Assembly: GCA_965219575.1 (NCBI GenBank)
Contig: OZ244779.1
Coordinates: 492,769-556,768, forward strand
Source: Candidatus Oxydemutatoraceae bacterium
GTDB taxonomy: Bacteria; Pseudomonadota; Gammaproteobacteria; Poriferisulfidales; Oxydemutatoraceae
Reading direction: 5' to 3'
DNA length: 64,000 nt
Part shown: positions 41,647 through 60,594 of the stretch, piece after piece
How the letters are laid out: each line of letters begins with the position of its first letter
How positions within the stretch are numbered: the stretch's first letter is position 1
Program-made: the position numbers and the translations under genes
Notes under the pieces: generated by a model
What the model was told of the DNA's origin: nothing
The model's database searches: none
Seen by the model: only the letters and a program-made list of their open reading frames with translations

Positions 41647-41722
41647 TCCTCGGTAGCTCAGTTGGTAGAGCGGGTGGCTGTTAACCACTAGGTCGGCGGT
41701 TCGAGCCCGTCCCGAGGAGCCA
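41647..41722 (+). tRNA. tRNA-Asn(GTT)
   Basis: TCCTCGG...CCGAGGAGCCA cloverleaf; anticodon loop CTGTTAA. Confidence 0.97.
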
Positions 41723-41751
41723 CTCTCCCCGACGATTTCAGAGGAACAGAC

Positions 41752-41852
41752 TATTCCCCTCCTGTGGAGGGGTGGCAGGCGCAGCCTGACGGGGTGGTCG
41801 CTGGGGTCTTGCACAATGTCACGCCGATTGACCTACCGGCTCAATCGACGGT
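41752..41852. repeat. Partial modular repeat between convergent tRNAs
   Basis: TTCCCCTCCTGTGGAGGGGTGGCAGGCGCAGCCTGACGGGGTGG plus CCGATTGA..TCAATCG hairpin. Confidence 0.75.
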
Positions 41853-41884
41853 TCTGTGCTTAACGACAATAAATGGTATCGACA

Positions 41885-41961
41885 TGGGGTGGACGATGGG
41901 GATTGAACCCACGACCTCAGGAGCCACAATCCTGCGCTCTACCGACTGAGCTACGCCCACC
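41885..41961 (-). tRNA. tRNA-His(GTG)
   Basis: G(-1)GTGGGCG...CGTCCACCCCA; anticodon loop TTGTGGC. Confidence 0.97.
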
Positions 41962-42030
41962 ATGTCTAAAGCCATTATAATTTGCGTCATCGTAGTTGCT
42001 CGCATCAACATAAACGACGGCAATTCTCTA

Positions 42031-42107
42031 TGGCGCGCCTGGCAGGACTCGAACCTGCTACCCTCGGCTTAGAAGGCCGATGCTCTATCCAAATGAGCTA
42101 CAGGCGC
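42031..42107 (-). tRNA. tRNA-Arg(TCT)
   Basis: GCGCCTG...CAGGCGCGCCA; anticodon loop CTTCTAA. Confidence 0.97.
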
Positions 42108-42136
42108 ACATACAGATTTCAATCATTATATATAAA

Positions 42137-42213
42137 TGGTCGGGGTAAGAGGATTCGAACCTCTGACTTCCTGCTCCCAAAGCAGGCGCGCTACCAGACT
42201 GCGCTATACCCCG
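42137..42213 (-). tRNA. tRNA-Pro(TGG)
   Basis: CGGGGTA...TACCCCGACCA; anticodon loop TTTGGGA. Confidence 0.97.
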
Positions 42214-42360: not shown

Positions 42361-43695
42361 ATGCTAGAAATTAATAAATTTATACTAAAAGATGTACGTT
42401 GCTTCAAAGGCGCAAAGGAATTCAATATACGGCCGTTGACTTTTTTGGTCGGAGAAAATAGCACCGGCAAATCAACCGTCGTGGGTTGTTTCCAAGCGAT
42501 GGCACAACATCTCAGAGAAAATAATTACTTCTCTATAAGTGGGGCTTCAATAAACTTTAACTCAGAGCCTTTTCAAATGGGAAGCTTTGAAAATATTGCA
42601 AGAAGAGCAAGACCCAAAAACAAGGAATTTGAATTGGGTTTTGAATTCATTGACAACAGAAATAATGCCTCAAAATTTCAATTGTTGGTTACTCTTGCTC
42701 AGCAAGCGAATAGTGCGAATTCTATCGTAAAACAGGCATACTTCATTTTTGACGATGGCGAAATAATATTTCTTGATGCTGGCACCACCGAGAGTAATAC
42801 AACATGGGAAATCAAAATTGAAGAGAGAAACTCCAAGAAAATTTTCGCTATTGCATTAAAAGAAGACCAAAATCACTCCCTTTTTCGTAATGTAATAGGT
42901 TTAATAGCTCACTATGAATCAGATTTTAACTCTGAAGAAGAACTTAGCTCTGAAGAAAAACAATTTATTGAATTTATTAAGGATAAGAATTGGGCGAGAT
43001 TTTTAAGTTTATACTTTAGATGTTTTTCTTTTCCCCCTACCCAACCAAAACCTAAAAGAACCTATGATCCCTTGGGCAACATCGCAACCTCAAGCGGTGG
43101 CAATATTTTTCTAATACTTAAAAATTTTAGCATCAAAGAACCCAAAGATTGGAAAAAACTATACAAAAACCTTAAAGATTTCGGCACGGCATCAGGCTTA
43201 TTCACCGATATTAAAGTAAGAAAACTTGGTGGTTCATTAAGCGACCCGTTTCAATTAGAACTTAAAATCAGAAAGGGGGCGGCTACGAATCTGATAGATG
43301 TAGGTTATGGTATCAGTCAGATATTACCCTTGTTAGTGCCCATACTAGCAAAGGAAAAGCATACTTTTTTAATGCAACAACCGGAAGTGCATTTACATCC
43401 CAAAGCTCAAGCGGCTTTCACATCATTATTGGCGACATTAGCAAAACAAAAAGATCATACTTTTATTATAGAAACACACAGCGACTACATGGTTAATCGA
43501 GCCTGCATTGATATCATGAAAGGCAACATAAAGCCGGAGGATATCTCGTTGATCTATTTGGAAGCACAGGGTAAAGATGTAGAAGTCCACAATCTATGTT
43601 TTGATAAACAAGGCGACTTTGAGGGCGACCCGCCCGATAGTTATCATGATTTCTTCTTATCGGAAAGTCATAAATTATTGGGCTGGAAAGATTAA
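42361..43695 (+). CDS. AAA_15/AAA_21-type ABC-like ATPase
   Basis: GENSTGKS, DVGYGISQILP, QQPEVHLHP and IETHSD. Confidence 0.9.
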   Translation: MLEINKFILKDVRCFKGAKEFNIRPLTFLVGENSTGKSTVVGCFQAMAQHLRENNYFSISGASINFNSEPFQMGSFENIARRARPKNKEFELGFEFIDNRNNASKFQLLVTLAQQANSANSIVKQAYFIFDDGEIIFLDAGTTESNTTWEIKIEERNSKKIFAIALKEDQNHSLFRNVIGLIAHYESDFNSEEELSSEEKQFIEFIKDKNWARFLSLYFRCFSFPPTQPKPKRTYDPLGNIATSSGGNIFLILKNFSIKEPKDWKKLYKNLKDFGTASGLFTDIKVRKLGGSLSDPFQLELKIRKGAATNLIDVGYGISQILPLLVPILAKEKHTFLMQQPEVHLHPKAQAAFTSLLATLAKQKDHTFIIETHSDYMVNRACIDIMKGNIKPEDISLIYLEAQGKDVEVHNLCFDKQGDFEGDPPDSYHDFFLSESHKLLGWKD

Positions 43696-43697
43696 CT

Positions 43698-43838
43698 ATG
43701 TGCGTGATTATAGATACTAATATGATTGTAAATTATATTAACGAGACCGAGGACATGAAACCACGCTTGTTCAGATTGAGCGGCTTCTTCAATATTATCT
43801 GCCAACACGCCGGCGATTGCCCGCATCGCAGGCGATAG
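43698..43838 (+). pseudogene. Truncated PIN-like partner of the ATPase
   Basis: Starts 2 bp after the ATPase as MCVIIDTN; composition changes abruptly after about 22 codons and it stops at codon 47. Confidence 0.45.
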
Positions 43839-43930
43839 CTAGCCACCGCGAACGCGCCCAAAAGTTTAATGCTTACAGTGCCTTCTTGTCTTTGATTTTA
43901 ATATCTATTCTCATTGTGATATACTTCAAA

Positions 43931-44029
43931 TGAGGGCTTTGCGAGTTGGATTATCAGAGTTAGGTCGCTTACATAATCTCGCTACTACCAAATGCCTAAC
44001 CATTTGGTTTAGACGTCCCATAGCCCTCA
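43931..44029 (-). ncRNA. Predicted structured RNA directly after the PBECR2-like gene (copy B)
   Basis: Closing stem UGAGGGCU/AGCCCUCA; hairpin ACCAAAUG-GUUAGG-CAUUUGGU; second stem GCGAG/CUCGC + GAUUAU/AUAAUC whose loop carries CCUAAC, complementary to GUUAGG. Confidence 0.5.
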
Positions 44030-44548
44030 CTTTTTATACAACAGCCTTCCTTCCCTTCTCCCATCAATATAGCCTATTCTGCTTGCCGGTATTGCGTTCC
44101 AAAATAAGCTGCCGTCTAGGTTCTCCCGAGCAATCACCAGCATATTTTTTTTATCCTTAAAGAGCTTAATAAAGTGACAGCGGAAACCATTTTTATATTC
44201 AGTCAACCAAATTTCATTCGGGTCAGTCAATGTGGGTATTATCCAGTTAATAAACCTTTCTCTCCGATGGCTTCGCTTCATCAATATATGGCGAATATAT
44301 TGCCGGTGAATAATAACCGGTTCAAGCGGTGTATTAACTCTTCTCCATTCTTGTCCTCTTAAAAGAAATTCATCAACTTTTTCTAGCGCACTTTCTAAAG
44401 ATTTTGCACCAACTAAAACCTTAGGTGCTTTGTCTAACAATTCATGAGGATAGTCTTTTACACCGAGTAACCCGTAGTCTTGATAATCTGGCTGACCGGG
44501 TCTTATTCCGGCGACACCTCTACCATGACCGCCGACTTGCTTAGACAT
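44027..44548 (-). CDS. PBECR2-like nuclease-fold protein (copy B)
   Basis: HI..KR...RERF...I..TL.DP.EIW...Y..G....FIKLF...L.WNA and YID..R.G.LLY pattern. Confidence 0.7.
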   Translation of the reverse strand: MSKQVGGHGRGVAGIRPGQPDYQDYGLLGVKDYPHELLDKAPKVLVGAKSLESALEKVDEFLLRGQEWRRVNTPLEPVIIHRQYIRHILMKRSHRRERFINWIIPTLTDPNEIWLTEYKNGFRCHFIKLFKDKKNMLVIARENLDGSLFWNAIPASRIGYIDGRREGRLLYKK

Positions 44549-44571
44549 TCACAGGAGGGGAATACTATGTA

Positions 44572-45297
44572 TTACCACTCTATGCTGAATAGGTAGCGAC
44601 CGCTTCTAGGGATACAGCATTTATATTTTTGCCAGAAGTTATAGCCGTAGGCTGCCTCTGCGGAGGCTTTGCCTGCCGACCAGTCATCTTTTTGTTGTGC
44701 GCGTTCGTCAAACGAGCTACATTCGTTTTCTACTCGAGGGTAAATCATTTGCCAGCGGTCGGTTGCTTCGTCGCCGACATCGCGTTGTTGAACCGAGCGT
44801 TGCTGCACACATCGGCCGGTTATCGCCAGTGTCGTATCTCGCATCTCTTGTTGCCATTGCCCACCCGAGGCGTGGCATTGTTGATAGCTTTTTGCATCGG
44901 AATCTCCCCACAGCTCCCATTGTTCGTCGTCGTGAACTTCGGCGGAGGTGATATTGTGATAGCTGTCGGGGTTGCCGCCGACTGCTTTTGCGGCGAGTTG
45001 AGAGACGATGTTCACCGGTGACTTCAGCGACAGCAATGTTGCTTCTTGCCAGGGACACTGACCGGCACTATTGGTAACCGTGAGGTCGGGTAGATAGTGC
45101 GATATTTTAGGAGTGACTCTGATACTGCACTTGGGGCTACACTTCAACCAAAAGCACAAACCGATGATTTGCCAATCCAAACACTGGACTTGCATGGATC
45201 TATATATCAACTGTGCGGTATTAAAACCCGCTAGGCTCTGCGCGGGCAATGCGCAGCATAACCACACGCAAGCGATTAACATATATTTGCTTATCTT
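44572..45297 (-). pseudogene. Duplicated TraU/TIGR03756-like gene with an in-frame 426-bp internal deletion
   Basis: Near-identical to 46001-47152 but joins GGNP directly to DSYH at the microhomology CGGGGTTGC. Confidence 0.85.
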
Positions 45298-45360
45298 AAT
45301 GAAGGATTTAGGGGTGTAGATGCGACGCGTTTCGGGCGGACTATGTGGTATACTTTCAGT

Positions 45361-45458
45361 GGGGGTTGTGTGAGTTAGATTGCTAGAGTTAGGTCGTTTA
45401 AGTAATCTTGCTGCTAACAAATGCCTAGCCATTTGGGTTAGATACCCCGCAACCCTCA
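45361..45458 (-). ncRNA. Second, diverged copy of the structured element after the PBECR2-like gene (copy A)
   Basis: GGGUUG/CAACCC closing stem (compensatory change versus GGGCU/AGCCC); CAAAUG-GCUAGG-CAUUUG hairpin; conserved GACCUAACUCU. Confidence 0.4.
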
Positions 45459-45977
45459 TTTTTTATATAACAACACACCCTTCCTTCTCCCATCAATATA
45501 ATTTATTCTGCTTACCGGTATTGCGTTCCAAAACAAGCTGCCGTTTAAGTTTTCTCGCGCAATAATAAGCATATTCTTTTTTCCTCTGAACACTTTAATA
45601 AAACGCCTGCGAAAACCGTCATTATATGCAGTTAGCCAAATTTCATTCGGCTCAGTTAATGTCGGTATTATCCAATTAATAAACTTCTCTCTCTGCTGTC
45701 CCCGCTTTATTAATATATGGCGAACATGATGCTGATGAATAATAACCGGTTCAAGCGGTGTATTAACCTGTCTCCGTTCTTGTCCCCTCAAAAGAAATTC
45801 ATCAACTTTTTCTAGCGTACTTTCTAAAGATTTTGCACCAACTAAAACTTCAGGTGCTTCATCTAACAGTTCACGAGGATAGTCCTTTACGCTGGGCAAT
45901 CCATAGTCTTTATATTTTTTTTGATTCGGTTCAACGATTGCGATGCCTCTACCATGACCGCCGACTTGCTTAGACAT
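45456..45977 (-). CDS. PBECR2-like nuclease-fold protein (copy A)
   Basis: 173-aa paralog of 44027-44548, same length with many substitutions. Confidence 0.7.
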   Translation of the reverse strand: MSKQVGGHGRGIAIVEPNQKKYKDYGLPSVKDYPRELLDEAPEVLVGAKSLESTLEKVDEFLLRGQERRQVNTPLEPVIIHQHHVRHILIKRGQQREKFINWIIPTLTEPNEIWLTAYNDGFRRRFIKVFRGKKNMLIIARENLNGSLFWNAIPVSRINYIDGRRKGVLLYKK

Positions 45978-46000
45978 TCACAGGAGGGGAATACTATGTA

Positions 46001-47167
46001 CTACCACTCTATACTGAATAGGTAGCGACCGCTTCTAGGGATACAGCATTTATATTTTTGCCAGAAGTTATAGCCGTAGGCTGCCTCTGCGGAGGCTTTG
46101 CCTGCCGACCAGTCATCTTTTTGTTGTGCGCGTTCGTCAAACGAGCTACATTCGTTTTCTACTCGAGGGTAAATCATCTGCCAGCGGTCGGTTGCTTCGT
46201 CGCCGACATCGCGTTGTTGAACCGAGCGTTGCTGCACACATCGGCCGGTTATCGCCAGTGTCGTATCTCGCATCTCTTGTTGCCATTGCCCACCCGAGGC
46301 GTGGCATTGCTGATAGCTTGTCGCATCGGAATCTCCCCACAGCTCCCATTGTTCGTCGTCGTGAACTTCGGCGGAGGTGATATTGTGATAGCTGTCGGGG
46401 TTGCGGACGACGATTTCAATCGCTCGTTGAGCAATCACTGCCCCGGCCTTGACATCGTTCGGGTTTAACACGGTGCCTCGTCGCGGATAGATACTTCCCC
46501 AGCCGTTGTCGAGTATCGGTAGGTTGTCGGTGATTCCATTGTTCGGCAACTCGCTTCTACCGACCATGCGGCTACCCGGTTTCCAGCTTTCTATCCTGTC
46601 CAAGTCGGTGCCGCCCATGCCTTGCAGTGAACTTATGTCGATGCCGCGCCAGGTCAGAACATTGAGTCCCTGTCTGGAATTGAAATAGATGTGCATCGGC
46701 TTGCTTTGGCTTTTACACAAAAAGCGCACATTAAATCTAGACCCTAGTGAGGCGGTAGGGTTGCCTATCACCATAGCGTCTTTGAACTTCATCGCATAGC
46801 GACCCAACCGTCCACCTTGTCCGGGGTTGCCGCCGACTGCTTTTGCGGCGAGTTGAGAGACGATGTTCACCGGTGACTTCAGCGACAGCAATGTTGCTTC
46901 TTGCCAGGGACACTGACCGGCACTATTGGTAACCGTGAGGTCGGGTAGATAGTGCGATATTTTAGGAGTGACTCTGATACTGCACTTGGGGCTACACTTC
47001 AACCAAAAGCACAAACCGATGATTTGCCAATCCAAACACTTGACTTGCATGGATCTATATATCAACTGTGCGGTATTAAAACCCGCTAGGCTCTGCGCGG
47101 GCAATGCGCAGCATAACCACACGCAAGCGATTAACATATATTTGCTTATCTTTTTGATTGCTGCCAT
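46001..47167 (-). CDS. TraU-like ICE protein (TIGR03756-type)
   Basis: CLDWQIIGLCFWLKC, HYLPD, WGSIYPRRG, WQMIYP and YNFWQKYKCC. Confidence 0.85.
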   Translation of the reverse strand: MAAIKKISKYMLIACVWLCCALPAQSLAGFNTAQLIYRSMQVKCLDWQIIGLCFWLKCSPKCSIRVTPKISHYLPDLTVTNSAGQCPWQEATLLSLKSPVNIVSQLAAKAVGGNPGQGGRLGRYAMKFKDAMVIGNPTASLGSRFNVRFLCKSQSKPMHIYFNSRQGLNVLTWRGIDISSLQGMGGTDLDRIESWKPGSRMVGRSELPNNGITDNLPILDNGWGSIYPRRGTVLNPNDVKAGAVIAQRAIEIVVRNPDSYHNITSAEVHDDEQWELWGDSDATSYQQCHASGGQWQQEMRDTTLAITGRCVQQRSVQQRDVGDEATDRWQMIYPRVENECSSFDERAQQKDDWSAGKASAEAAYGYNFWQKYKCCIPRSGRYLFSIEW

Positions 47168-47586
47168 CTTAGAAATCCTTGATAGACATCGTTGCCTTTA
47201 TATAAAGAGAGAGTTTTGTTTTGTTCGAAAACAACCACCGGAAGATCGTCAATCTCAACATCATACCGAGTCTGCAAATCAAAAAGGTTCATTTGTGCGT
47301 CGGCTAGTGCTTGTAGCTGTGTGCGCGGCAACCGCGCAATCGAGGCTTTAATCTCGGCGATAGACGAGTCGTTCATGTCGTTGTTTGCATACGCACCGAA
47401 CATAGCATCCAGCTCGGGGATCACGGATAGATCTACGACCCGTATATCGGAGATGGACGGTTCTTGCTTCAATCTCGAAATACCCGAGATTTCATTCGGT
47501 TTTACGCTATAGATACGAACAGTTGCCGATGCCGAGATAGTGTCTTGCGCCGAACCCGCACCGCCGGCAGCAGTTGCGCACAGCAT
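47146..47586 (-). CDS. TIGR03757/DUF1525-like ICE protein
   Basis: Y.V.IDDLPVVVF......Y.G.DV tail; the ORF-track extension to 47874 lies in a repeat, so the start is uncertain. Confidence 0.6.
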   Translation of the reverse strand: MLCATAAGGAGSAQDTISASATVRIYSVKPNEISGISRLKQEPSISDIRVVDLSVIPELDAMFGAYANNDMNDSSIAEIKASIARLPRTQLQALADAQMNLFDLQTRYDVEIDDLPVVVFEQNKTLSLYKGNDVYQGFLRWQQSKR

Positions 47587-47609
47587 CAACGCACTCAATA
47601 TATAACCGG

Positions 47610-47900
47610 GGGGGCGATGGATGAATGTATAAATTGTGCAGATACGACGGGGCTGTTGAAAAAGTATTTCATAGAGTGGTAGGGGCGGACTTATATGTCC
47701 GCCCGTAACAACGCGTTGACCGGTACAATTTATACATTCATCCATCCAATTTATGGAAGCCAAAACCAAATGGCGCAAGCGATTGAGGTTGTGCAGAACG
47801 GCACTTAAGGGCAGACATATAAGTCTGCCCCTACGCAGGTAAACATAAATTTGTCGGGTAAACATAATATTCATGCAAAACGCTATTTTGTCAACAGCCT
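47610..47900. repeat. MITE-like modular repeat inside the T4SS operon
   Basis: GGGCTGTTGAAAAGTA ... TTTTGTCAACAGCC with two GGGCGGAC/GGGCAGAC hairpins. Confidence 0.8.
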
Positions 47901-49312
47901 CATGTGACTGCCCGATGATGTTCTATAAGTGCCGAACCTTTTTTGATTGCCAAAACCAGCACTATGAAATAGGCAATAGAAAAAATCAGTGGTAAATACG
48001 AAAAGACATAAGCGATAATCAAGCGATCCATATTGACATTGAACAGACCGATCCCTTGATAAAGGCTCTCGGTCACCTTGGCATCCAATGCTGCCACCAA
48101 AACATAGATCATCGGCATCGCTTGGATGCCCAAAATCCACGCCGCATAATACAGAACACCTATCAACCTTAAGCCAGTTGCGAGCAAAAACAAAGGGATA
48201 AAAAAGTACAGTGCCAGCAAAACAATCGGTTGTATGTATGAAGCGATACGCTCGAGTAAATAAGTGTAGTTGAAAGCTGCCGACACTTGCTCGGACAACC
48301 CTGCCAAACCCGAACCCGACATATAAGCCGCATCCCCGACATGTAAAACCTTAGCCGAAGATTGAGCCGAGTTGGCGGCAGCGGAATACGCCGCACCCGA
48401 ATGACCGAGTTCCAGCGGATTTGATTTGAGCATCGCTTTGACAATACGATCTTCTACATCGCGTGAACCCGACCCTAAAATACCTGCCGTTTCTACAGGC
48501 GGTAGTTGTGCCGTTGCCTGCGCCAACAAAATCTCCTTCAACCCTTTATTCGTCCCGTCTCCCAGCCACCACGCCGAGCAGCTTCTCACCAAATTGGGTT
48601 GCCAACGTTGCAATCGGGTCGGTAATAGAAAAGCGTCGTAATAGCCCGGTGTGTCTAGATAATAACGGCTGCCCAAATAGGCAAGGTCATCCGCCGAAGG
48701 CGGCATACCGCCGCCTTCATAGCCTATGGTTTGATATTGATAGCGCGCCTGCCCGTAGCATTTGGATGCAAATTGATAGTATTCGTTCAATATCGCCGGG
48801 TCTTGTATTTTGTTCGTCCTGATAATAGTCTCTACTGCGCGCCAATCGGTGAAGCAATCCAACCCGTCAAGTATTTGATAATAAATGCCGGCACCTACTT
48901 TGTGTATCAATGCCCAAAACAGCGGGATTTTTACACCGTCGGTCTCGGCGATCAATTCTTGTTTTAAGTCCTCAAAGACGGTCATCTCCTCGAATGCCGT
49001 ACCTTTGCCGTATTCTTGACAGCCGCCCGATAGATCCAAAACCTGTACTGCATCAATCCTGAAGATCGGGAAAAAAGCGAACAGCAAAACAAGCGCGGCA
49101 ATCACCGTGCGTATTTCCAGCGAGCGATTGGTGTCTTTATCTCCGTCGCCCGCACCTGCCGTCTTATACCAAGCGGAGAACAATGCGACGATCATAACCG
49201 CCAACACGATGCCCGACGAAAATAAAATGTCGGTAAAAAAGTTATTGAGCAACCAACCGTACAGTGTGAATGCTCGCTCCCATTCCGAGAATACCGACAG
49301 GCTGACACCCAT
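47900..49312 (-). CDS. TraG N-terminal-domain membrane protein
   Basis: TLYGWLLN, IPLFWA, I.DP....E..QF...CY..AR and LGSRYY..TPGYY; C-terminal TM helices. Confidence 0.8.
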   Translation of the reverse strand: MGVSLSVFSEWERAFTLYGWLLNNFFTDILFSSGIVLAVMIVALFSAWYKTAGAGDGDKDTNRSLEIRTVIAALVLLFAFFPIFRIDAVQVLDLSGGCQEYGKGTAFEEMTVFEDLKQELIAETDGVKIPLFWALIHKVGAGIYYQILDGLDCFTDWRAVETIIRTNKIQDPAILNEYYQFASKCYGQARYQYQTIGYEGGGMPPSADDLAYLGSRYYLDTPGYYDAFLLPTRLQRWQPNLVRSCSAWWLGDGTNKGLKEILLAQATAQLPPVETAGILGSGSRDVEDRIVKAMLKSNPLELGHSGAAYSAAANSAQSSAKVLHVGDAAYMSGSGLAGLSEQVSAAFNYTYLLERIASYIQPIVLLALYFFIPLFLLATGLRLIGVLYYAAWILGIQAMPMIYVLVAALDAKVTESLYQGIGLFNVNMDRLIIAYVFSYLPLIFSIAYFIVLVLAIKKGSALIEHHRAVT

Positions 49313-49327
49313 TGCACATCAAACCTG

Positions 49328-50641
49328 TTAGGGTTGTAAGGGCGTGCGCAGCACATCGGGCGAGATATCGTTGCGTGCGCTTTGTCTTCGCTCCGCTCTT
49401 TCCAGAATACGGATGACCAAATCCGAGACAACTTTGCCGCGCGCTTCGGCTTCCATTAACAACTGATCGATCTCGGCTTCCAAACGTTTTATCGCTTGAC
49501 CCACTTCTTCGGAGATAAATCTCTTGTGCTTATAAAGGTTGGGTTCTTTAGAACCTATCAGCAATAACCGTCGGGCAAGCAGAGCCTCGTCCAAAACCTG
49601 TGCAGATGCGATTTCATTGGCAAGCCGTTCCGACAACCACTCCTGATCTAGGTCAACCTGCAAAGCTGCCACTATTTGCGGCAACATTTCCTGCGAGCTT
49701 GAACTTAAAAACTCCAGATCCTTCGGATCTATATCGTAGATTTTGTTCGCCGGTGTTTGTATTAACTGTTCCAGCTTTGCTTTGATCAACGGTTCGCGTT
49801 CGCTGACTTTGGCGTTGAGACCCAAACCCGGATAGCTTTGTGGTGCCGGCGCGCCGCGATAAATCCAAAAGCCGATATCGCCGACGATATCGGTAATCCA
49901 TTGCTTCAATTCGGTAACCACACGCCAGGTTCTGGTGTATTGATTTTCCGCCGCCGAGGTCTCGCAATCGGTGCGGGTCTCACCGTTGGCAATGCACCAA
50001 CCGGCGGCGATGGTGTGCCTCACCGGTCTAATTTGACGTTGCCCACGCCCGCCGTGTTTTTCGTCGCCGACCCAAGTAATGCCTTTATCCTTAGCCTCGG
50101 ACATCTCCTCCTGCACTTGCGCCGGCGTTTTATTTGCTTGTTGCCCTTGGTTCCATGCGTTTTCAACGGTCGCATTAAAGACATCTTGATACGGGTTGCG
50201 CCCTTGCGTTGCATCGGCAATCATCTGCTCGCAGCTTTTAACGGCAAGATTAAAACGATTTTCAAAACGCGCGGTATATTCTTGTGCCAATTCGCAAACA
50301 CCCGGCAACGCGCGACAAAACACCACGCCCGGCAACGACGAGATTACCGTTTTGGGTATGGACTCTACCGTGCTCATCGTTTCTTTAAGCCCGGTGAGTG
50401 CATAATCCACCGACAGTTTGGGATCGAATTTACTACACGCAAGCCGTGCATCCAGATTGAGTTCGGCACCCATATAAAGACTGCTTTCTCTAGGCGGTGC
50501 CGGCGGCGATCGGTTCGAGCTAAACTCTATGTAATCCTTGAGGTTGTCAATCAAGTTGCTCTGTGCGTTTAAGTCGGCGGTTGCAAACAGCAACGGCACA
50601 CAGACCCCGCAAACAAACTTCCTTAAAATACTCGCTTTCAT
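49328..50641 (-). CDS. TIGR03755-like ICE protein
   Basis: CSKFDP, SLPG...RA.PG, KSCEQM, GITWVG...GG.GQ and ALLARRLL..G..EP. Confidence 0.8.
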   Translation of the reverse strand: MKASILRKFVCGVCVPLLFATADLNAQSNLIDNLKDYIEFSSNRSPPAPPRESSLYMGAELNLDARLACSKFDPKLSVDYALTGLKETMSTVESIPKTVISSLPGVVFCRALPGVCELAQEYTARFENRFNLAVKSCEQMIADATQGRNPYQDVFNATVENAWNQGQQANKTPAQVQEEMSEAKDKGITWVGDEKHGGRGQRQIRPVRHTIAAGWCIANGETRTDCETSAAENQYTRTWRVVTELKQWITDIVGDIGFWIYRGAPAPQSYPGLGLNAKVSEREPLIKAKLEQLIQTPANKIYDIDPKDLEFLSSSSQEMLPQIVAALQVDLDQEWLSERLANEIASAQVLDEALLARRLLLIGSKEPNLYKHKRFISEEVGQAIKRLEAEIDQLLMEAEARGKVVSDLVIRILERAERRQSARNDISPDVLRTPLQP

Positions 50642-53433
50642 CGTATACCTCCGTTGGCACGTTTCTGTTTAATAGCCGCTGCGATTCGGTGAACCGCATC
50701 CAACTCGCTACAACGATGCTGCTTCATCAATTCGGCACGCACCGCTTTCTCGGATTTTTCGGTTTGTGCCAATGCCAACGACAAAGCAGGCACGACACTC
50801 CTAAACAAAGTCAGCAATATGTCGGAGACAACCACACCCTCGACATAGTCGCCCGACGCTTTTTTTGCTGACAATAGTAGCGACCTCTGGTCTTCGGATA
50901 AATGCTTAAAGCGAGCAACCTGCTCGACTTCACCTTGATCCATAGAGAGCGCAATCAACCATTCCGGTTGGTTCAACATTTCTCGGGCATTCTCCGGAAA
51001 TTGTGCCAATGTCTGCGTTGCCAACCATAGCCAAGCTCCGAAAGTCCGCCACATTGCCATAATGTTGTTGAGCGTCGGAGCAACCAACGGGTTCTTGAGC
51101 AATATGTGTGCTTCGTCTATTACGGTGAGTAGCTGTCGGTCTTCGTATTGACTACGCTCGGCAGTCTCGTTGATTTGGTTGAGCAAGCTCAAAATCGCAA
51201 CCGACAGCTGTGCTTGATAATCCTTTTTGGCAAAGCATCCCAACTCTATCACTGTAACATCGGCATCCGGCCACAAGCTGCCTTTGCGATTAAATATCTG
51301 ACCGGTCATGCCTTGACAAAACAGATCCATCGCATTGGCATACGCAATGAGTTTGTTCGCGGACGAAGCGTCCAGTAACATCTCACCTCCGCTTTGTTCA
51401 CCGCTTGCCAACGCGCGCATCGCAGCGACCACATCGGAGGTTCTGGTTTGCCGGTTTTGGCGTTGGGTGGTCTCGGCGGCGATGATGATTGCGCGTCTAA
51501 TCATGTTCATATCGGCGCGTCTCAGATCCGCCTCCTCGCGTGCATCGCCCCCGGTGATCATCAGCTTGGCGATGCTTTCCATTTCGGCTAAACGATCGCG
51601 CGACACATCGTCTGCATCGCCTCCGTCGGCACCGTCGTCGTCCACCGCAAGCAACAATTTGTGCGCATCCGCAAACGGCGGCAAGCTCACATCCATCTCG
51701 CCGATACGCACATAGTTGACGCGCACATCCAGACTTTTTAGATATTGCGCGAACAAACCGAAAGCCGGCAACGAAGTAATGACGAAAAGCCGTGGACGGT
51801 GTACCGCAATCAACTGTAGCAACATATAGATCAGGGTTGCCGTTTTGCCCGACCCGGTCGGTCCCAACATCAATAAGTGCGCGTTGCGCTTTCTATCGTC
51901 GGGGTTCAAAATATCAAAAGTGAGCGGTTGCGCACCTCTATTCCAAAACAAAAAGCCGGGGTTGCCGGTGCCGGTGCTACGCCCCCAAACCGGTGCGGTG
52001 CGTTGGATATGCTCGCTATACCAAAGTCGGCTACGGCGTATATAAGGTCTACGATCGTGGTTGCGGTCGTAAGAAAAAGGCAGGGCGCGTAAAAAACAAT
52101 CCTGCGCAATCAGGTCGTATTGCGGCGACACGACACGCAAGCCGTGCGCACTCAGAATAGATGTGGCTTGTATCGCGTTGGATTTCAATCGTTCCAGATC
52201 CTCGCCGCGCACGAAGACACCACCGTAGACCCTATAAAGTTTATGACCGGCTGCCATATATTCTTGTGCGCGGTGTGCCATCTCGTATTTGGCATTGGCT
52301 TCCGCCGAACCCCCTTTGGAGTTTTGCATCAGTTGTTGTATATGCTCGGAAATCTCCGTTTGAGAGCAGAACTGTATCGTCAAAGACAAGGTGGTGCCGG
52401 GCGGCATATTGTCCCACAGCACGCGCCGTTGCATCCCTACCTTTTGTTCGGCGGTCAACACGCCGATGGCAGGTTCGTCGACCAAGCCGTCAAAGCAAAC
52501 GAAGCGCGTCGCCTGCTTGCGAAAATACCAGTTGCCGTCGGCATCGCTACCCGGATAAACTCCCTGACACGCGCGTCTCACCAAATCACCCATGTCGTCG
52601 TCTAGTAAACCGAATCCGACTTGTGCCGTCTGCCACTGCGAAGGCTGAACATCGGCGGCGGATGTCGGAGCAAACCATTGCGTCAACCAACGACACAAAC
52701 CGGCCGGCGTATCGGCAACCAACTTGATGTTCGCCTGCGCCAGAGCATTTTTTAATTTCTCGGATACTTCCGCTATCGCATCGCCTTCTTTGTCGTTGCC
52801 ACCGTCGCGCCACAAACAAAGACGCACTCGGCGTATGCGGGCGCGCCATACACCCCCGGAAACCTGCCGGTCAAAGAACAAACCCTGCGGTTGACTCGCT
52901 TGCTCCAAATGCACACGCAACTGCTCCAGCCAACTCTGCGTAAAGCGATTTTCAGACAACCGTTTGCCGGCATAAGCCTTTAGCTGTTCGTGAACCGAAT
53001 CGAGCGAGGCTTCGTCTTCTAAGAAGAACTGCAGAAACCATAAATGCTTCTCGTTCTCCGGTATCACATTGGAAAATGCCGGCACCGCCTTATTGAATAA
53101 TGCCTTCACATAGGCATCCGATTGTCCTTCGACACCCGCCGGTATCAGCTCGAAAAATCGCCCCACATTGCTTAAGTTTCTCAGCAAAATATCGCAGCCG
53201 TTGAGGTCGGCACGCGGACCTAGATAATCCAAAAACCCCGGCGCCGAATAAAGACATCGGCTTTTCTGTCCGGGGTCGGCAACCTTCAGATAATCTCGCT
53301 GCTTGAGATGAGATTGCCCGCTACCGTCCCAGTAAAAATAAGGGGCTATATCTTTAGGAACATAAGCGGGCATCTCTTCCCTGTCGCCTCTATAAAGACC
53401 GAAATGCTTTTCCCACAAATTAAAAATAGACAT
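50638..53433 (-). CDS. Conjugative-transfer ATPase, VirB4/TraC-like (TIGR03744-type)
   Basis: WGRSTGTGNPG...NRG, NAHL...GPTGSGKT, DEAH and GAWLWLATQ. Confidence 0.93.
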   Translation of the reverse strand: MSIFNLWEKHFGLYRGDREEMPAYVPKDIAPYFYWDGSGQSHLKQRDYLKVADPGQKSRCLYSAPGFLDYLGPRADLNGCDILLRNLSNVGRFFELIPAGVEGQSDAYVKALFNKAVPAFSNVIPENEKHLWFLQFFLEDEASLDSVHEQLKAYAGKRLSENRFTQSWLEQLRVHLEQASQPQGLFFDRQVSGGVWRARIRRVRLCLWRDGGNDKEGDAIAEVSEKLKNALAQANIKLVADTPAGLCRWLTQWFAPTSAADVQPSQWQTAQVGFGLLDDDMGDLVRRACQGVYPGSDADGNWYFRKQATRFVCFDGLVDEPAIGVLTAEQKVGMQRRVLWDNMPPGTTLSLTIQFCSQTEISEHIQQLMQNSKGGSAEANAKYEMAHRAQEYMAAGHKLYRVYGGVFVRGEDLERLKSNAIQATSILSAHGLRVVSPQYDLIAQDCFLRALPFSYDRNHDRRPYIRRSRLWYSEHIQRTAPVWGRSTGTGNPGFLFWNRGAQPLTFDILNPDDRKRNAHLLMLGPTGSGKTATLIYMLLQLIAVHRPRLFVITSLPAFGLFAQYLKSLDVRVNYVRIGEMDVSLPPFADAHKLLLAVDDDGADGGDADDVSRDRLAEMESIAKLMITGGDAREEADLRRADMNMIRRAIIIAAETTQRQNRQTRTSDVVAAMRALASGEQSGGEMLLDASSANKLIAYANAMDLFCQGMTGQIFNRKGSLWPDADVTVIELGCFAKKDYQAQLSVAILSLLNQINETAERSQYEDRQLLTVIDEAHILLKNPLVAPTLNNIMAMWRTFGAWLWLATQTLAQFPENAREMLNQPEWLIALSMDQGEVEQVARFKHLSEDQRSLLLSAKKASGDYVEGVVVSDILLTLFRSVVPALSLALAQTEKSEKAVRAELMKQHRCSELDAVHRIAAAIKQKRANGGIR

Positions 53434-53816
53434 CAGAAATGCTCCGCAGGTAGTGCGTAATGATCTTTCTCGTACAAGCTGAAACCGGTTGCATAACCCG
53501 GCACCGGTGCGCCTTTGACGATATGCGGGAATACGAATAAAACGATCTTGGGGTTGGGCAACAGCGGGAAAAGCACTTCCAGTTCGTTGTTTGCGTCTCT
53601 GGTGTAAGCGGTTAAATCGGCAGAACCGTGGCGTAGCTTGCCGTCGATGCCGTCGGCACTCGCACTATGCGCCCTATATAATTCCAACATCGGGCGACGG
53701 TTGCCGTCGTGGCCCGGCAATTTGGAACCGCACCCTTCAGTCAAGGCGAGTGCCAGTATCATCACCAACCTCAAAAGCAAAGGTTGAAACATCGTATAGC
53801 TTTTTATTACTGTCAT
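53433..53816 (-). CDS. TIGR03751-like conjugal transfer lipoprotein
   Basis: Lipobox-like EGC; YTRDA.NE...LFP.LPNP...FVFPH...PVPGY.T.F.LY...YALP. Confidence 0.85.
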   Translation of the reverse strand: MTVIKSYTMFQPLLLRLVMILALALTEGCGSKLPGHDGNRRPMLELYRAHSASADGIDGKLRHGSADLTAYTRDANNELEVLFPLLPNPKIVLFVFPHIVKGAPVPGYATGFSLYEKDHYALPAEHF

Positions 53817-55083
53817 AAATAAACTCCAACGGTTGATCTACATTGATTACTACTTCCCGCTCGGGAGGCACATAAATCGCATCCCATACATCGTATCTGG
53901 ATGCCAAATAATTCCTGACATTGCCGGCCGACTTGGCAAAGCCTTCACCGATGAGCACCCGCACTTCTTCACCGGTAACACTCTCTATGGTGTTACCTTC
54001 GGGGCTGACCGTACGAGTACGCTGGTTGTCGGCATAACCTTCGCCTATGCCTTGCGCAATACCCAAAATCGCCTCGGCGGTTATTTGTTTTGCGGCGTTG
54101 CTAACGAGCTTGCCCTTAAGACAAGGATGACCGTAAGCGTCGCTCAAATACCCCAAACCTTTTTCGCTGTCGGAGGCTTCCACAAAACCGACTACCTTGC
54201 CCGGCAAAACCGCCGTGACCCGCGTCAAAACAACTCGCACACATTCAAAATTAGCGTCGCCGAATGCCCTGCCGTCCCAAATCATCTGCGCGGTATCGAC
54301 GGCATAACCGTTGGGTGCATAACCTTCCATCGTGCTGATAACTTTGATAGGCCAAGGTTCGTTCAACTGTCCGCGCACCGGCAGACGTCCTATCGCTGCG
54401 GTCAATGTAACACCTTGTATGATCGTGGCAGGCGGGATGGTGTGTGCCACCGCCTCGTCGTCGGCTGCCGCGACTGCCGATATCGCATCTATATCCAAAT
54501 ACTCGGACACACCACCGGCAAGATGTTCCGACCCATCGTCATCGGGTGTTATCACGCTTTGATCCTCTATCCACAACCAAGCAGGTTGCGCCGGAACACT
54601 CGACGGCGAATAATCGGGCACCTCCTCGTGGTACGGTGCGATCGGTTCATCCCCCGGTTTCGATATATCGAGTTGTCGGTTGCCGACACGCTCGGGTATA
54701 TTCGTTTGTTGTGCATCGGTTTGACGGGCGGTGCTGTTCTGCCGGTTCGCGAGTTTTTTAATCTCGCCGTGCAGTGTTTGCAACTCGCTATGAATTTGAC
54801 TCACCGTTCGGTTAATTTGTTCCTTAAAAGCCGATTGGTCTTCGCGTATTTCATTGATCCGAGAACCCACGGCTTTAACGGCTTCCGAAGGACTGTCGCT
54901 ATCCTGCGCCGGATAACCGGGCGATTGCGACGGCTCGGACGAAGTGGTTTGCGAGTCCGAAAAATTATCGTCTTGACCGTTTGCCAGCAACATCAGCAGT
55001 GCGACAATGCCGATGACCGCAATCAGAATATAAACTAAAGGATTGGTCTTCATCGTATCGTTAAAGTTCAGGTTCGAGCGCAT
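53737..55083 (-). CDS. TIGR03752-like (TraB/VirB10-type) protein
   Basis: N-terminal TM, coiled coil, TIP..T......TA.IGR.P, G.A.GD...CV, GYLSD.YG.PC..G and AIYVPP. Confidence 0.85.
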   Translation of the reverse strand: MRSNLNFNDTMKTNPLVYILIAVIGIVALLMLLANGQDDNFSDSQTTSSEPSQSPGYPAQDSDSPSEAVKAVGSRINEIREDQSAFKEQINRTVSQIHSELQTLHGEIKKLANRQNSTARQTDAQQTNIPERVGNRQLDISKPGDEPIAPYHEEVPDYSPSSVPAQPAWLWIEDQSVITPDDDGSEHLAGGVSEYLDIDAISAVAAADDEAVAHTIPPATIIQGVTLTAAIGRLPVRGQLNEPWPIKVISTMEGYAPNGYAVDTAQMIWDGRAFGDANFECVRVVLTRVTAVLPGKVVGFVEASDSEKGLGYLSDAYGHPCLKGKLVSNAAKQITAEAILGIAQGIGEGYADNQRTRTVSPEGNTIESVTGEEVRVLIGEGFAKSAGNVRNYLASRYDVWDAIYVPPEREVVINVDQPLEFIYDSNKKLYDVSTFAFEVGDDTGTRLD

Positions 55084-55912
55084 CGTTCGGTGTTCTATAC
55101 AACCAGCGCGATTCGGGAATGGAACGGCGCAACGGTTTATTGCCGATAACGACCAACGCAGTCACCGACTTCTCGGTATTCGCAGGTTCCAGTTTCGAAT
55201 GTGCGAGTGCTGCCGCTTTGAAGTTTCCGACGATTGCGCGAGGGTCTAAGGCAACGGTAGTTTGCAAGGTGTTTTTAAGTTCCAACAAAGTCGCATAGAG
55301 TTCGGTCGTGCGCCACGCCGCAATCGGTTTGGCAAACACTCCACCACCGCAAATAGGTTCGTTGACCCTCAAGCAACGCATAATGTCTATCAGGTCTTCG
55401 GGGTAATCGGTTGCGGTGATACACGGGTTGCCGGTTAATAACCGGCGCGGCGCATAAGCCCATTGCAACGCATAGCGGGCGAGTTCGACCATACCGATAT
55501 CGCAATTTGAATCGGCAACCGCAACTTGAGATATTGCGGTGTCCGTATCGCTACTTAACAAAATAGGTTCGCCCGGTGGATCGTCATAGCCGGCACCGAG
55601 TATCAGCACCATCTTGGTATCGGGCATCTCGGTGTCGGATATTTTGAAAATGACTTTCTGGTCTTCAAAACTTTGCTCGGCAAGCAACCAAACCTGTGAG
55701 CCTATCGTGGTTACCGATAATTTCTTATGCAACGACTTGGGTATGCCGACCTTGACCGACGCTGCCGATTTGAGCATAAAACGTCGCTCGCTCCCGACTC
55801 GCAGCTGCACTTGAATAGGCTCGTCTCTATAAACCAGTTGTAGTGTCTCATCGGCGTGCAGATAATTGTTTGCCAATAACAGTAGAAAGATAAAGAAGTT
55901 TTCGCGTATCAT
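55061..55912 (-). CDS. TIGR03749/DUF3438-like ICE protein
   Basis: PI.VQL.VG.ER, LARYA.Q..YAP.RL, P.AAW and LDPR...G.F; start ATG 55912 coupled to the upstream stop. Confidence 0.85.
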   Translation of the reverse strand: MIRENFFIFLLLLANNYLHADETLQLVYRDEPIQVQLRVGSERRFMLKSAASVKVGIPKSLHKKLSVTTIGSQVWLLAEQSFEDQKVIFKISDTEMPDTKMVLILGAGYDDPPGEPILLSSDTDTAISQVAVADSNCDIGMVELARYALQWAYAPRRLLTGNPCITATDYPEDLIDIMRCLRVNEPICGGGVFAKPIAAWRTTELYATLLELKNTLQTTVALDPRAIVGNFKAAALAHSKLEPANTEKSVTALVVIGNKPLRRSIPESRWLYRTPNDALEPEL

Positions 55913-56565
55913 TACTTGCCTCTTTCGCTCTGTTGTATCTGCTCGGCATTGCCGACAGGAATACGAATCGACGGCTTTGACGGCGCATCGAGCAGCAGAC
56001 CCCATGGGTTATACGCCGAGTTGATATCTTTGTAGACCACCGGAATATGCTCACGAATGGTGATGCCGTCTTTGATTTTGATGCCGTTCAAGCTCTCGTT
56101 CAATATCAAGTCCAACTGCACGAGCCATGCATTTCCGGCAGTCCGGCGGACCAAGCTGTGCTTGTAGACACTTGCCGGTTGCAAACTGCGCTTGCGTCCC
56201 TTGAGCTCTCCGCGCTTAGCCAAATCACTGTTTTTCTGCATTAAGAAACGGTAAAAATCATCGGTTATCAAATAACGAAGCCTTTGTATGTTGGCGGTGA
56301 AATCGTTACTGCCGTCTTCCAACCATAAATAAATTTGCTGATAAACCGAACCGGCGAATAAATAAATCTCGTGTGCTTCTATCGTGCCGGTGGTGAGCTT
56401 GGAACCAAAACGCAACTCGGGGGGTAGCGATAAACGATGCTCTCTCGCAACCCAAAACACTGCAGCGAGTAGGAGCAGACAAACGGCGAACAAACCCGCA
56501 CCGATCAGCCTCAAGGTTTTAATGTGTGCAACCAAATTGGCTTCTGCCGAATGATAACGATTCAT
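55912..56565 (-). CDS. TIGR03746/DUF2895-like ICE protein
   Basis: HI.TLR, PP.LR.GS, FA...YQQ...W..DG, GEL.GR.R and NPWGL.LD. Confidence 0.85.
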   Translation of the reverse strand: MNRYHSAEANLVAHIKTLRLIGAGLFAVCLLLLAAVFWVAREHRLSLPPELRFGSKLTTGTIEAHEIYLFAGSVYQQIYLWLEDGSNDFTANIQRLRYLITDDFYRFLMQKNSDLAKRGELKGRKRSLQPASVYKHSLVRRTAGNAWLVQLDLILNESLNGIKIKDGITIREHIPVVYKDINSAYNPWGLLLDAPSKPSIRIPVGNAEQIQQSERGK

Positions 56566-56569
56566 TTGT

Positions 56570-56899
56570 CTAAGATCCGGTGGCTTTGAAATTGCCGATA
56601 TGCCGACATTGGTGAAAATAGCCGGTCCAATAAAAGCGATCCGCCAAGTATTGCAAGTGCCAATGTCTAGGACGGCTACGCTTGAGACGGCTGTAGCAAA
56701 CGGCAACCAACCACACCGTGAAAGGTGTCATCACCATGAACACGATAAGCCCTATAAATATATTCCAAAATACGAAGCTCAGCAGAGCCGATAGCAACAG
56801 CCAAACGATGACGGCAACTACGATCACAAAGCTCAGTTCGGAACCGGTGCAACCTTTTAACATCAACGGTTCGTCGTCTAAAAAATCGGCAGGCTTCAT
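56570..56899 (-). CDS. TIGR03750/DUF3487-like membrane protein
   Basis: L..EP...KG.T..EL, two TM helices, RLKR.RP. Confidence 0.8.
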   Translation of the reverse strand: MKPADFLDDEPLMLKGCTGSELSFVIVVAVIVWLLLSALLSFVFWNIFIGLIVFMVMTPFTVWLVAVCYSRLKRSRPRHWHLQYLADRFYWTGYFHQCRHIGNFKATGS

Positions 56900-56925
56900 A
56901 TCGATCTCCACGCTAAATCCACGCT

Positions 56926-57279
56926 TTATATTTCGTTGACATACTGAACAATCTGCACCGTGCCGAAGATAATCAGCACCAGAACCAAAATCGTTGCAAT
57001 AACCGTGACCGCGAAATGCCCCCACTCGCCCTGTTCGCGTCCTTTTTTCAGCGCATTCAATAATCCGCCGCTCGCACCCAGCACCGCAATAATCAGCATA
57101 GCTACCGCAGCCACCGTGAAAATGGCTATCAGCGCATTTCTGAAATACTCCCAGAAATCACCGCCACTACCGCCGCCGAAACTCGGCGGTGTCGGCAGTT
57201 GCGCTTGCGCCACCGACCACAGCGACAACAGCACAATCGTGCCGAGCGTGGTTCGAAGTAATAATTTAATCTGTGACAT
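56926..57279 (-). CDS. TIGR03745/DUF2976-like pilin-type membrane protein
   Basis: Signal, A.AQLP..P..GGG, two TM helices with G.W..F. Confidence 0.75.
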   Translation of the reverse strand: MSQIKLLLRTTLGTIVLLSLWSVAQAQLPTPPSFGGGSGGDFWEYFRNALIAIFTVAAVAMLIIAVLGASGGLLNALKKGREQGEWGHFAVTVIATILVLVLIIFGTVQIVQYVNEI

Positions 57280-57287
57280 AAAAACAC

Positions 57288-57545
57288 CTATAGTCGGGTT
57301 GAAACCAAATAATGAACAAAAGCCATAACCAAAATGATCAGGGTCAGCGCACGCAACACCCCGAACAAAAAACTCGCCTCGGACAACACGCCGTTTTGTA
57401 ATCCTCTGCGCAACCTCATCAACCTAGCAACGAACCCTATAAAAATTAAAATGCTCAACACCGTAGAGAACAACAACTCCAAGTCGCCCATCGAAATGCC
57501 ACTGGCGGATAAAAAAGCGTCGCCGTTATAATTGCTATTCAACAT
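57288..57545 (-). CDS. TIGR03758/DUF3262-like small membrane protein
   Basis: AF..ASG start, two TM helices, expected position in the operon. Confidence 0.7.
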   Translation of the reverse strand: MLNSNYNGDAFLSASGISMGDLELLFSTVLSILIFIGFVARLMRLRRGLQNGVLSEASFLFGVLRALTLIILVMAFVHYLVSTRL

Positions 57546-58050: not shown

Positions 58051-58131
58051 AAAAACGATTCCTATTTCTAAAGCCCAAGCCGGAACGCACTATCAACATC
58101 CGCCGATAAAATAACGGAGCGCAATGCCGTC

Positions 58132-58722: not shown

Positions 58723-58748
58723 AATAGCCTCCTCTAAGTTATGCCGAG

Positions 58749-59905: not shown

Positions 59906-59915
59906 CCGGTCTGCT

Positions 59916-60476: not shown

Positions 60477-60499
60477 CCCGTATAACGAGTTCCGGACAT

Positions 60500-60533: not shown

Positions 60534-60594
60534 ACCGGCACTAGATATTTCGGTGCTTTGCGGTGCGGCTCATTTCGGGGTAACCGACATGTGT

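Follow-up and report, generated by a model that had tools for sequence, protein, structure and literature searches.

A structured RNA element adjoining PBECR2-type nuclease genes of Mu-like phages, plasmids and a conjugative element remnant, and its possible role as an RNA antidote

We analysed a stretch of 64,000 nucleotides (hereafter the window) of the genome of Candidatus Oxydemutatoraceae bacterium, corresponding to positions 492,769 to 556,768 of contig OZ244779.1 (assembly GCA_965219575.1). Two genes coding for PBECR2-type nucleases lie on its minus strand, and a folded element adjoins the stop codon of each. A preliminary description of this DNA had proposed that the two nucleases and the elements behind them form modules of a toxin and its cognate antitoxin RNA. 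The features concerned are listed below, with positions counted along the window.

44027..44548, minus strand: PBECR2 nuclease gene copy A, 173 aa (Pfam PF18810, E 7.8e-18), without MuF domain
45456..45977, minus strand: PBECR2 nuclease gene copy B, 173 aa (Pfam PF18810, E 2.6e-17)
43928..44032, plus strand (proposed RNA strand): structured RNA element copy A, closing stem arms 43928-43938 and 44022-44032
45360..45459, plus strand (proposed RNA strand): structured RNA element copy B, closing stem arms 45360-45368 and 45450-45459
43959-43964 and 43995-44000, no strand assigned: complementary loop motifs of copy A, a 6-bp kissing pair
45388-45393 and 45424-45429, no strand assigned: loop motifs of copy B, complementary at 5 of 6 positions

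The two open reading frames (ORFs) scored 65.3 and 63.6 bits with PF18810, for which the curated cut-off is 27.1 bits, and the nucleases are identical at 134 of 174 positions. Copy A aligns with the C-termini of full-length Mu-like F proteins of 378-524 aa. Three more PBECR2 copies occur elsewhere in the genome. In one of them, PBECR2 is the C-terminus of a longer ORF carrying the end of a Phage_Mu_F domain, and in all three the element follows and then the start of a Mu G-like virion morphogenesis gene. We found no intact Mu-like prophage in the genome, which holds one MuF fragment, one portal fragment, one full G gene and several G fragments; all five prophage remnants are centred on PBECR2 and the element. 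According to Iyer et al. 2017 (PMC5512222), PBECR domains occur either as C-terminal parts of MuF head proteins or as solo genes in transfer elements resembling type IV secretion systems (T4SS), and PBECR proteins are predicted to be injected RNases. Because of these settings, and because Mu-like F and G remnants are present in the genome, we take the window nucleases to be the cut-off C-terminal domain of a Mu-like head protein F with a new start codon. The ratio of nonsynonymous to synonymous substitution rates (dN/dS) ranged from 0.21 to 0.37 overall, with 0.21 between copies A and B and 0.32 between copy A and its orthologue in an integrative and conjugative element (ICE) of a related genome. 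Furthermore, both window copies and most relatives carry a histidine at the position aligned with the proposed catalytic His, a position placed by alignment only, without structure.

A run of eight adenines (A8) lies inside the nuclease ORF, at about 44140-44150 of the window (codons ~133-136 of copy A, in a Lys-rich motif), and tblastn revealed a change of frame at exactly residue 134 in several relatives (L015, L024, L025, L027, L031 and L033). This frame change could reflect phase variation, decay or a homopolymer error of long reads.

The stretches located 3' of the two stop codons are homologous, with a mean column identity of ~80%, and their homology ends ~115 nt downstream. Both share an architecture made of a closing stem and two hairpins with loops complementary to each other. 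Model R1, a covariance model built on the closing stem and the first hairpin, matched copy A at 43911-44033 with 120.8 bits and copy B at 45340-45462 with 111.3 bits. On the minus strand, the region of copy A (43915-44035) adopted a closed structure of -35.9 kcal/mol (z -3.68; 0 of 200 shuffles as good), with GUUAGG in a hairpin loop (43995-44000) and the motif CCUAAC in the second arm (43959-43964). The region of copy B (45344-45464) gave a weak fold on that strand (-22.1 kcal/mol, z -0.38); its loop reads GCUAGG and its closing stem is kept through a change from C-G to U-A. On the plus strand, the folds of copies A and B reached -33.7 kcal/mol (z -2.9) and -36.7 kcal/mol (z -2.5), respectively. 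Our results thus agree with the preliminary description in that a homologous folded element starts at each PBECR2 stop codon, that one copy, the lower-coordinate one, closes into two hairpins with GUUAGG and CCUAAC, and that the other folds less well and retains its closing stem by a compensatory change.

The absence of an immunity-type ORF behind the nucleases, also claimed earlier, was borne out, as the element contains no conserved ORF. The frame of a short peptide overlapping the element is open in just 5 of 20 family copies, and a second sequence group has stops in all three frames; the peptide was rejected as the conserved unit on account of the former count.

Model R1 identified five copies of the element in this genome and 20 copies in four of the five genomes of the genus; the 48 genomes of the order that lie beyond this genus gave no match. 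The PBECR2 C-terminus ends at the element in 21 of 22 genus contexts. What lies beyond the element varies, with the start of G in 12 contexts, another sequence in 5, an ICE junction in 2 and other or cut sequences in 3. The 20 genus copies fall into about three sequence groups only and are not independent; in their alignment 87.7% of cells were paired, compared to 73.3% after shuffling and 31-42% when the partners were slid, and both sides changed in 13 of 20 pairs. The closing stem is kept in all 20 copies and forms in all of them when the two loop motifs are constrained to stay open during folding; in 14 of the 20, counted by eye, both hairpins present the motifs.

Some loci (L024 1000-2300; L025 1501-1912) contain C-terminal nuclease fragments in arrays, every fragment being accompanied by an element. 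One array has three fragments in a row, the third of which is cut by an IS3-family insertion, and another locus holds a convergent inverted pair. A small dispersed repeat separates the array fragments and is also found near the tRNA genes of the window (~41764-41949). Remnants often border insertion sequences (IS), and an IS110-family transposase adjoins one broken remnant of nuclease and element (L005 2191-3192). A 3.5-kb contig labelled as an Aestuariivita sp. metagenome-assembled genome (L015) carries an element identical to a Ca. Porisulfidus copy (L024 1050-1172) and is probably a binning error from a sponge metagenome.

A protein search of IMG/VR returned 22 viral contigs whose matching C-termini are 31-40% identical to the window protein. 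The open frame containing the match measures 311-524 aa in 21 of them and is truncated in L057, where the contig stops. A structured stretch of 100-125 nt starts 0-8 nt past the F stop codon in 21 of the 22 contigs (two of which are mutual duplicates), and the remaining contig has just a simple hairpin. The minimum-energy structure was closed and multi-branched in 17 of the 20 viral stretches that were folded. In the largest viral subtype (10 sequences), 82.6% of cells were paired and 23 of 32 pairs covaried, a value reached by none of 500 shuffles, the slid versions giving 4-8. The kissing helix of this subtype was 86.7% paired with covariation at 5 of 6 pairs, and the sequence of the viral loop pairs differed entirely from contig to contig. 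Because the loop helix covaries and the loop pairs differ between contigs, the kissing interaction that had been predicted from a single sequence is supported. Across 40 elements, loop-loop complementarity of at least 5 bp was present in 16, versus 6% of 600 shuffles.

Searching the viral contigs with the RNA pattern yielded 11 loci: four already known, four new true elements and three chance matches. All three testable elements found by the pattern only sit behind a PBECR2-type F end, one of them truncated. An earlier scan with a shorter DNA pattern had given 120 rows, among which model R2 recognised one true element amid a large excess of chance matches. In phage Mu itself, F and G overlap and there is no element between them; the PBECR domain of Mu is called inactive by Iyer et al. 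(PMC5512222). By tblastn, the PBECR2-type C-terminus had no match in 50,697 cultured-phage records, and the N-terminal MuF domain alone matched 391 cultured-phage records.

Furthermore, 75 plasmid records (Klebsiella 21, Pseudomonas 16, Leclercia 12, and others) carry PBECR2 as a solo gene according to tblastn, and these relatives are annotated as PBECR2 by their own records. The 150-nt stretch beyond one of these genes matched 70 plasmid records with taxon counts near-identical to those of PBECR2, the plasmid hosts of the element being Enterobacterales and Pseudomonas. The conserved core of the element is located ~75 nt past the PBECR2 stop codon in all 11 plasmid loci fetched, and the other neighbours differ among loci (SOS-associated peptidase, recombinase, PsiB, ParM, DUF2913). 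Inspection by eye of the strand opposite to the gene revealed a -35 hexamer in all 11 loci (TTGACN in 9), separated by 16-17 nt from a -10 hexamer whose end precedes an invariant RNA start sequence by 6-7 nt, and, in 10 of the 11, a GC-rich hairpin with a U-run ending on the nuclease stop codon. A promoter and terminator scan confirmed the promoter at two of two loci and the terminator at one of two. The RNA predicted from these signals measures 161-171 nt. Its fold on the opposite strand was paired in 98.8% of cells with covariation at 11 of 26 pairs, and its kissing helix was 98.3% paired with covariation at 4 of 6. Eight of the nine matches that a model built from the plasmid RNAs (model R3) gave at E up to 1 fell on viral elements, on the opposite strand, with best E values of 0.003 and 0.004.

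These comparisons establish, at the level of sequence, a selected fold, a tight linkage to PBECR2 in three unrelated settings and the signals of a convergent transcript that is independent and probably constitutive. The alignments identify the element as a real, selected RNA structure, and the covariation in homologs that the preliminary description had named as a check is present in the viral and plasmid sets. We consider it highly probable that the element represents a genuine RNA family coupled to PBECR2. The family is apparently undescribed: Rfam 15 gave no match on the elements of the window, 3 genus, 20 viral and 3 plasmid loci, at the gathering score or at E up to 1-10, and a full-text literature search that did not cover the gene-neighbourhood supplements of Iyer et al. 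and Jamet et al. found no description of the RNA. Self-cleaving ribozyme motifs were found neither by eye nor with Rfam.

An integron attC-like site or a miniature inverted-repeat transposable element, to which GTTRRRY-like motifs and terminal stems could be assigned, was dropped as a candidate, given that the closing stem varies with compensation and the genomic context is single. More generally, the element could act as DNA, either as a single-strand transfer or priming structure (ssi/Frpo-like) or as a recombination site that makes the fragment arrays. Such a role would fit the plasmid copies lying near leading-region genes, for example psiB and SOS-related genes, and the existence of arrays and inverted pairs of nuclease fragment and element; DNA also tolerates G·T pairs. 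However, the element is flanked, like any ordinary RNA gene, by a linear -35/-10 promoter and an intrinsic terminator, the array breakpoints fall at small dispersed repeats and an IS element and not at the element, and to our knowledge Mu-like phages have no single-strand stage comparable to that of transfer, which we count against this explanation. We regard a DNA-level role as quite improbable. Even less credible is a leader or translational-coupling device for the downstream phage G gene. Although the G start codon lies within ~20 nt of the element in 12 of 22 genus contexts, the distance to G in viral contigs ranges from ~15 to >400 nt, versus 0-8 nt to the F stop codon, and a G gene is entirely absent from the plasmid and ICE copies. 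The plasmid copies largely refute this possibility.

Which strand carries the RNA matters for its interpretation, as the preliminary description had placed it behind the nuclease on the same strand. Two sites on the plus strand of the window bear on this question.

43898..43925, plus strand: promoter-like site of copy A (-35 at 43898-43903, 16-nt spacer, -10 TATACT at 43920-43925, TG at 43917-43918)
45346..45354, plus strand: TG and -10-like hexamer of copy B (TG at 45346-45347, hexamer at 45349-45354), read by eye

The site of copy A, which is of the extended -10 type, was found by the promoter scan and ends 2 nt before the closing stem arm (43928), placing the predicted start within that arm as annotated. 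By eye, the -10 hexamer TATACT is present in 18 of the 20 genus copies and TG in 18 of 20, the position between them being the main variable site. This TG/-10 block, again by eye, is the best-conserved part of the family, and the homology of the ICE copies stops just past it. Automated promoter distances taken from the ends of minimum-free-energy stems proved unreliable, and TAnnnT was counted from fixed stem ends instead. Of 40 elements, 21 have a U-run behind the closing stem when read on the opposite strand, compared to 1 of 40 on the gene strand, and composition-controlled z-scores favoured the opposite strand in 15 of the 20 genus copies.

These data have to be weighed against a model in which the nuclease mRNA ends in the element as its 3' untranslated tail, the two being co-transcribed on the minus strand and the element acting as a pseudoknotted antitoxin of type III character. 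The closing stem indeed starts at the stop codon, and copy A folds best on the minus strand, being one of the few copies with a slight advantage on the gene strand; its z-score there (-3.68) is somewhat better than that on the plus strand (-2.9). In the viral set the z-scores are equal on both strands, the opposite one being better in 9 of 20, and a loose automated search for -10 sequences gave similar results on the two strands (30 vs 31 of 40). Copy B also has no recognisable -35, and its -10-like site was not listed by the promoter scan. All these points count against a convergent RNA in the window. Read on the gene-sense strand, however, the elements contain more A·C mismatch cells than G·U cells (29 vs 13 in the genus set, and likewise 22 vs 9), and more pair positions with only A·C than with only G·U (21 vs 6; 9 vs 4 in the genus set). 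In nine of ten plasmid rows, a conserved U·G pair of the opposite strand would become an A·C mismatch on the gene strand. The promoters and terminators lie on the opposite strand, copy B reaches a z-score of only -0.38 on the minus strand, and there is no repeat array. We find a co-transcribed 3' tail improbable. Instead of being co-transcribed behind the nuclease, the RNA probably has a promoter of its own and is read convergently, and the promoter and terminator signals together with the U·G pair shift the earlier assignment to the opposite strand. We are fairly confident of this strand for the plasmid copies, and moderately so for the window copies, where the plus strand is the better supported choice.

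The preliminary description had likened the locus to type III toxin-antitoxin (TA) systems. ToxIN, CptIN and TenpIN likewise combine a structured RNA with an adjacent endoribonuclease gene and neutralisation by direct binding, which is proposed here, and tertiary pairings are a feature of both kinds of RNA. Type III antitoxins are arrays of short tandem repeats located upstream of the toxin on the same strand and processed by the toxin. The element differs in being a single copy, located downstream of the stop codon in all settings and probably convergent, and its partner belongs to the PBECR2/BECR fold family. Tandem Repeats Finder returned 0 rows in 43500-47300, where each nuclease gene has one element. 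Pfam assigned nothing but PBECR2 to the nuclease, and PADLOC assigned 0 families to it, a search whose coverage of ToxN/AbiQ, CptN and TenpN was unchecked and which involved no direct comparison. Membership in type III was rejected, as two testable defining features of that type, the repeat array and an upstream RNA on the same strand, are missing.

Type I systems with RNAs that overlap convergently at their 3' ends (par/fst, txpA-RatA, bsrG-SR4), and SymE-SymR, resemble the locus in relying on a constitutive convergent small RNA (sRNA), both traits being proposed in our case. The plasmid copies share a further type I-like trait, as their predicted terminator ends on the nuclease stop codon, and the signals of the window fit this layout in part. 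Type I toxins are mostly small membrane peptides. The partner here is a soluble protein of 165-173 aa with a nuclease fold and not a small hydrophobic peptide; the overlap is confined to the 3' flank, and the junction nucleotides of the RNA are conserved and its two loops pair internally, neither of which antisense action requires. Three-way-junction RNAs such as the purine riboswitch aptamer and the packaging RNA of phi29 are alike in architecture only, with no match in sequence or Rfam. The loops of the phi29 packaging RNA join RNAs into a ring on the portal.

A parallel in gene order is offered by MuF polymorphic toxins, in which an F head protein also bears a C-terminal toxin-like domain and a protective determinant is expected directly downstream; according to Jamet et al. 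2017 (PMC5576092), a small immunity ORF is found directly downstream in 89.4% of 191 MuF toxins. At the loci described here this slot holds an RNA gene instead of a small ORF, and the toxicity of the nuclease is putative. The PBECR polyvalent proteins of PMC5512222 belong to the same family and the same settings, and the available part of that paper mentions no associated RNA.

In the explanation that accounts best for these observations, each element would be a small structured RNA gene of ~105-120 nt, with a closing stem and two hairpins whose loops pair, read from the plus strand of the window convergently with PBECR2 so that its 3' end abuts the nuclease stop codon. The RNA family would be a constant partner of PBECR2-type nucleases at the Mu-like F/G junction (in a subset of phages), on plasmids and in an ICE remnant, and would keep its cognate nuclease in check, either as an RNA antitoxin or as an immunity factor. 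An own constitutive promoter would ensure that the RNA is made when the nuclease gene is silent or when the nuclease arrives from outside. Restraint could operate in two modes. The RNA could bind the nuclease protein through its conserved fold, as type III antitoxins do in principle; that its three-dimensional shape is recognised is suggested by the conservation of the junction nucleotides and by the internal kissing pair. Alternatively, its pairing target could be the nuclease mRNA at the 3' end, in the manner of type I systems. Transcription, the strand used in the window and the function as a whole are what we infer from sequence. An antidote role is favoured because the RNA gene occupies the place of the MuF immunity ORF, because decayed prophages have kept exactly the nuclease domain and the RNA, and because the arrays of C-terminal fragment and element resemble orphan toxin-immunity modules. 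Even so, our confidence in the antidote role is evenly balanced, and the same holds for the overall explanation of a convergent small RNA restraining a PBECR2 nuclease.

A convergent sRNA with another job, either as a cis-antisense RNA of the F-G late transcript or as a trans-acting cargo of mobile elements, would leave the nuclease unaffected and draws on the same promoter, terminator and strand evidence. The phage RNA is complementary to the F-G intercistronic region, and the RNA persists beside truncated nucleases, as such a role would allow. On the other hand, the partner is always PBECR2, whereas the gene on the far side varies (G, recombinase, PsiB, ParM or none), the element is missing from Mu-like phages whose F protein has another C-terminus, and a plain antisense RNA needs neither conserved junction nucleotides nor an internal kissing pair. 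We consider this alternative doubtful. A more specific version of the antidote proposal is a tentative possibility, somewhat unlikely as it stands: a folded immunity RNA, present in single copy and constitutively produced by the resident element, may block a BECR-fold RNase delivered together with DNA by phage particles and conjugative elements and so protect lysogens and plasmid hosts. In that case, the loops and junctions would set the cognate specificity.

Several observations speak against the proposal that the RNA restrains the nuclease. The proposed catalytic His is replaced by Tyr in some genus copies and by Arg in one viral copy, where the RNA is kept, and the RNA is also kept beside truncated nuclease fragments. 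No Shine-Dalgarno sequence is visible before the window nuclease genes, and among the public runs listed no RNA run contains the stretch, the RNA runs listed containing next to none of its sampled words. In two of the three plasmids first inspected, a gene of ~170 aa lies upstream of PBECR2 (L191 1050-2055; L193 981-1992); it overlaps PBECR2 or ends 4 nt before it, and in one plasmid is annotated as a CopG-type ribbon-helix-helix protein. This layout is like that of a type II TA operon, coexisting with the downstream RNA, and the upstream gene could be the real antitoxin. The linkage between PBECR2 and the element could also partly reflect shared descent. Finally, model R3 had no match to the AT-rich window subtype at E up to 1. 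Because of this, the placement of window and plasmid elements in one family relies on position, architecture and short motifs; the two have in common their position, the order of the hairpins, the kissing pair and short junction motifs.

In the window, the nuclease genes lie at the end of an ICE-type T4SS module of the PFGI-1/ICEclc family, which a profile scan of ORFs placed on the minus strand at 43915-60907. The neighbouring features are the following.

46001..47167, minus strand: TraU-like ICE gene (TIGR03756 family), upstream neighbour of nuclease copy B
44572..45297, minus strand: second TraU-like copy, internally deleted (first codons and ~410 bp gone), upstream neighbour of nuclease copy A
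45298..45343, no strand assigned: junction of element B with the deleted TraU copy, the first part of which also occurs in the single-copy locus of the related genome
43764..43914, minus strand: broken remnant of a Mu G-like (virion morphogenesis) gene, matching G residues 1-50, with internal stops, beginning right behind element A

The module includes TraC, TIGR03755, TraG_N and TraU-like TIGR03756 genes and is flanked by a tRNA cluster (Asn, His, Arg, Pro; 41647-42213) on one side and by def/fmt on the other. No integrase, relaxase or coupling protein was found among its scanned ORFs, and the module is probably a decayed, immobile ICE remnant. Self-comparison revealed a tandem duplication at its end, with 43915-44982 matching 45344-46411 and a second block (44967-45297 vs 46822-47152) at 99.7% identity. 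The duplication is mosaic, as the TraU parts are 99-100% identical and the nuclease and the stretch behind it ~80%, and the same locus in the related genome is a single unit. Both junctions are covered by short-read contigs in 4 runs from 4 studies, with no single piece covering the whole; because of this coverage in four studies, the duplication is not an assembly artefact. We read the two window copies as one mosaic tandem duplication of a prophage-derived fragment and not as independent modules. Of the earlier idea of a nuclease with a cognate RNA, the tie of the element to PBECR2 in phages, the ICE remnant and plasmids is supported. The claim that protein and RNA diverged together does not hold up as evidence, as linkage alone predicts the same pattern. 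Overall, the preliminary interpretation is partly supported: the predicted kissing loop has covarying counterparts in viral and plasmid relatives, and the type III character failed for lack of a repeat array and of an RNA upstream of the toxin.

Beside the remnant, a defence-type ABC ATPase is encoded at 42361-43838 (also L012 3203-5046), with NsnB as best PADLOC match (E 8.8e-42) and an additional likeness to AriA. A small gene next to it codes for 146 aa and is intact in the related genome; here, the G-gene remnant cuts it after ~22 codons. The two genes are possibly a two-gene defence system that is broken in this strain.

The presumed benefit of PBECR2 nucleases to phages and plasmids is that host defences are overcome with their help. 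If our explanation is correct, a family of predicted injected nucleases has a dedicated and so far unannotated structured RNA, which would provide the first handle on how PBECR2 nucleases are kept harmless in the cell that produces them, and the TA repertoire would gain an RNA antidote whose fold and gene layout are new. Should the RNA act as an immunity factor against delivered nucleases, it would form an RNA antidote class of its own, and common plasmids of Enterobacterales and Pseudomonas would carry it. The plasmid copies reside in culturable members of these groups, making the question directly testable. For structural studies, the family also provides a natural three-way-junction RNA that is compact and contains a kissing pair supported by covariation.

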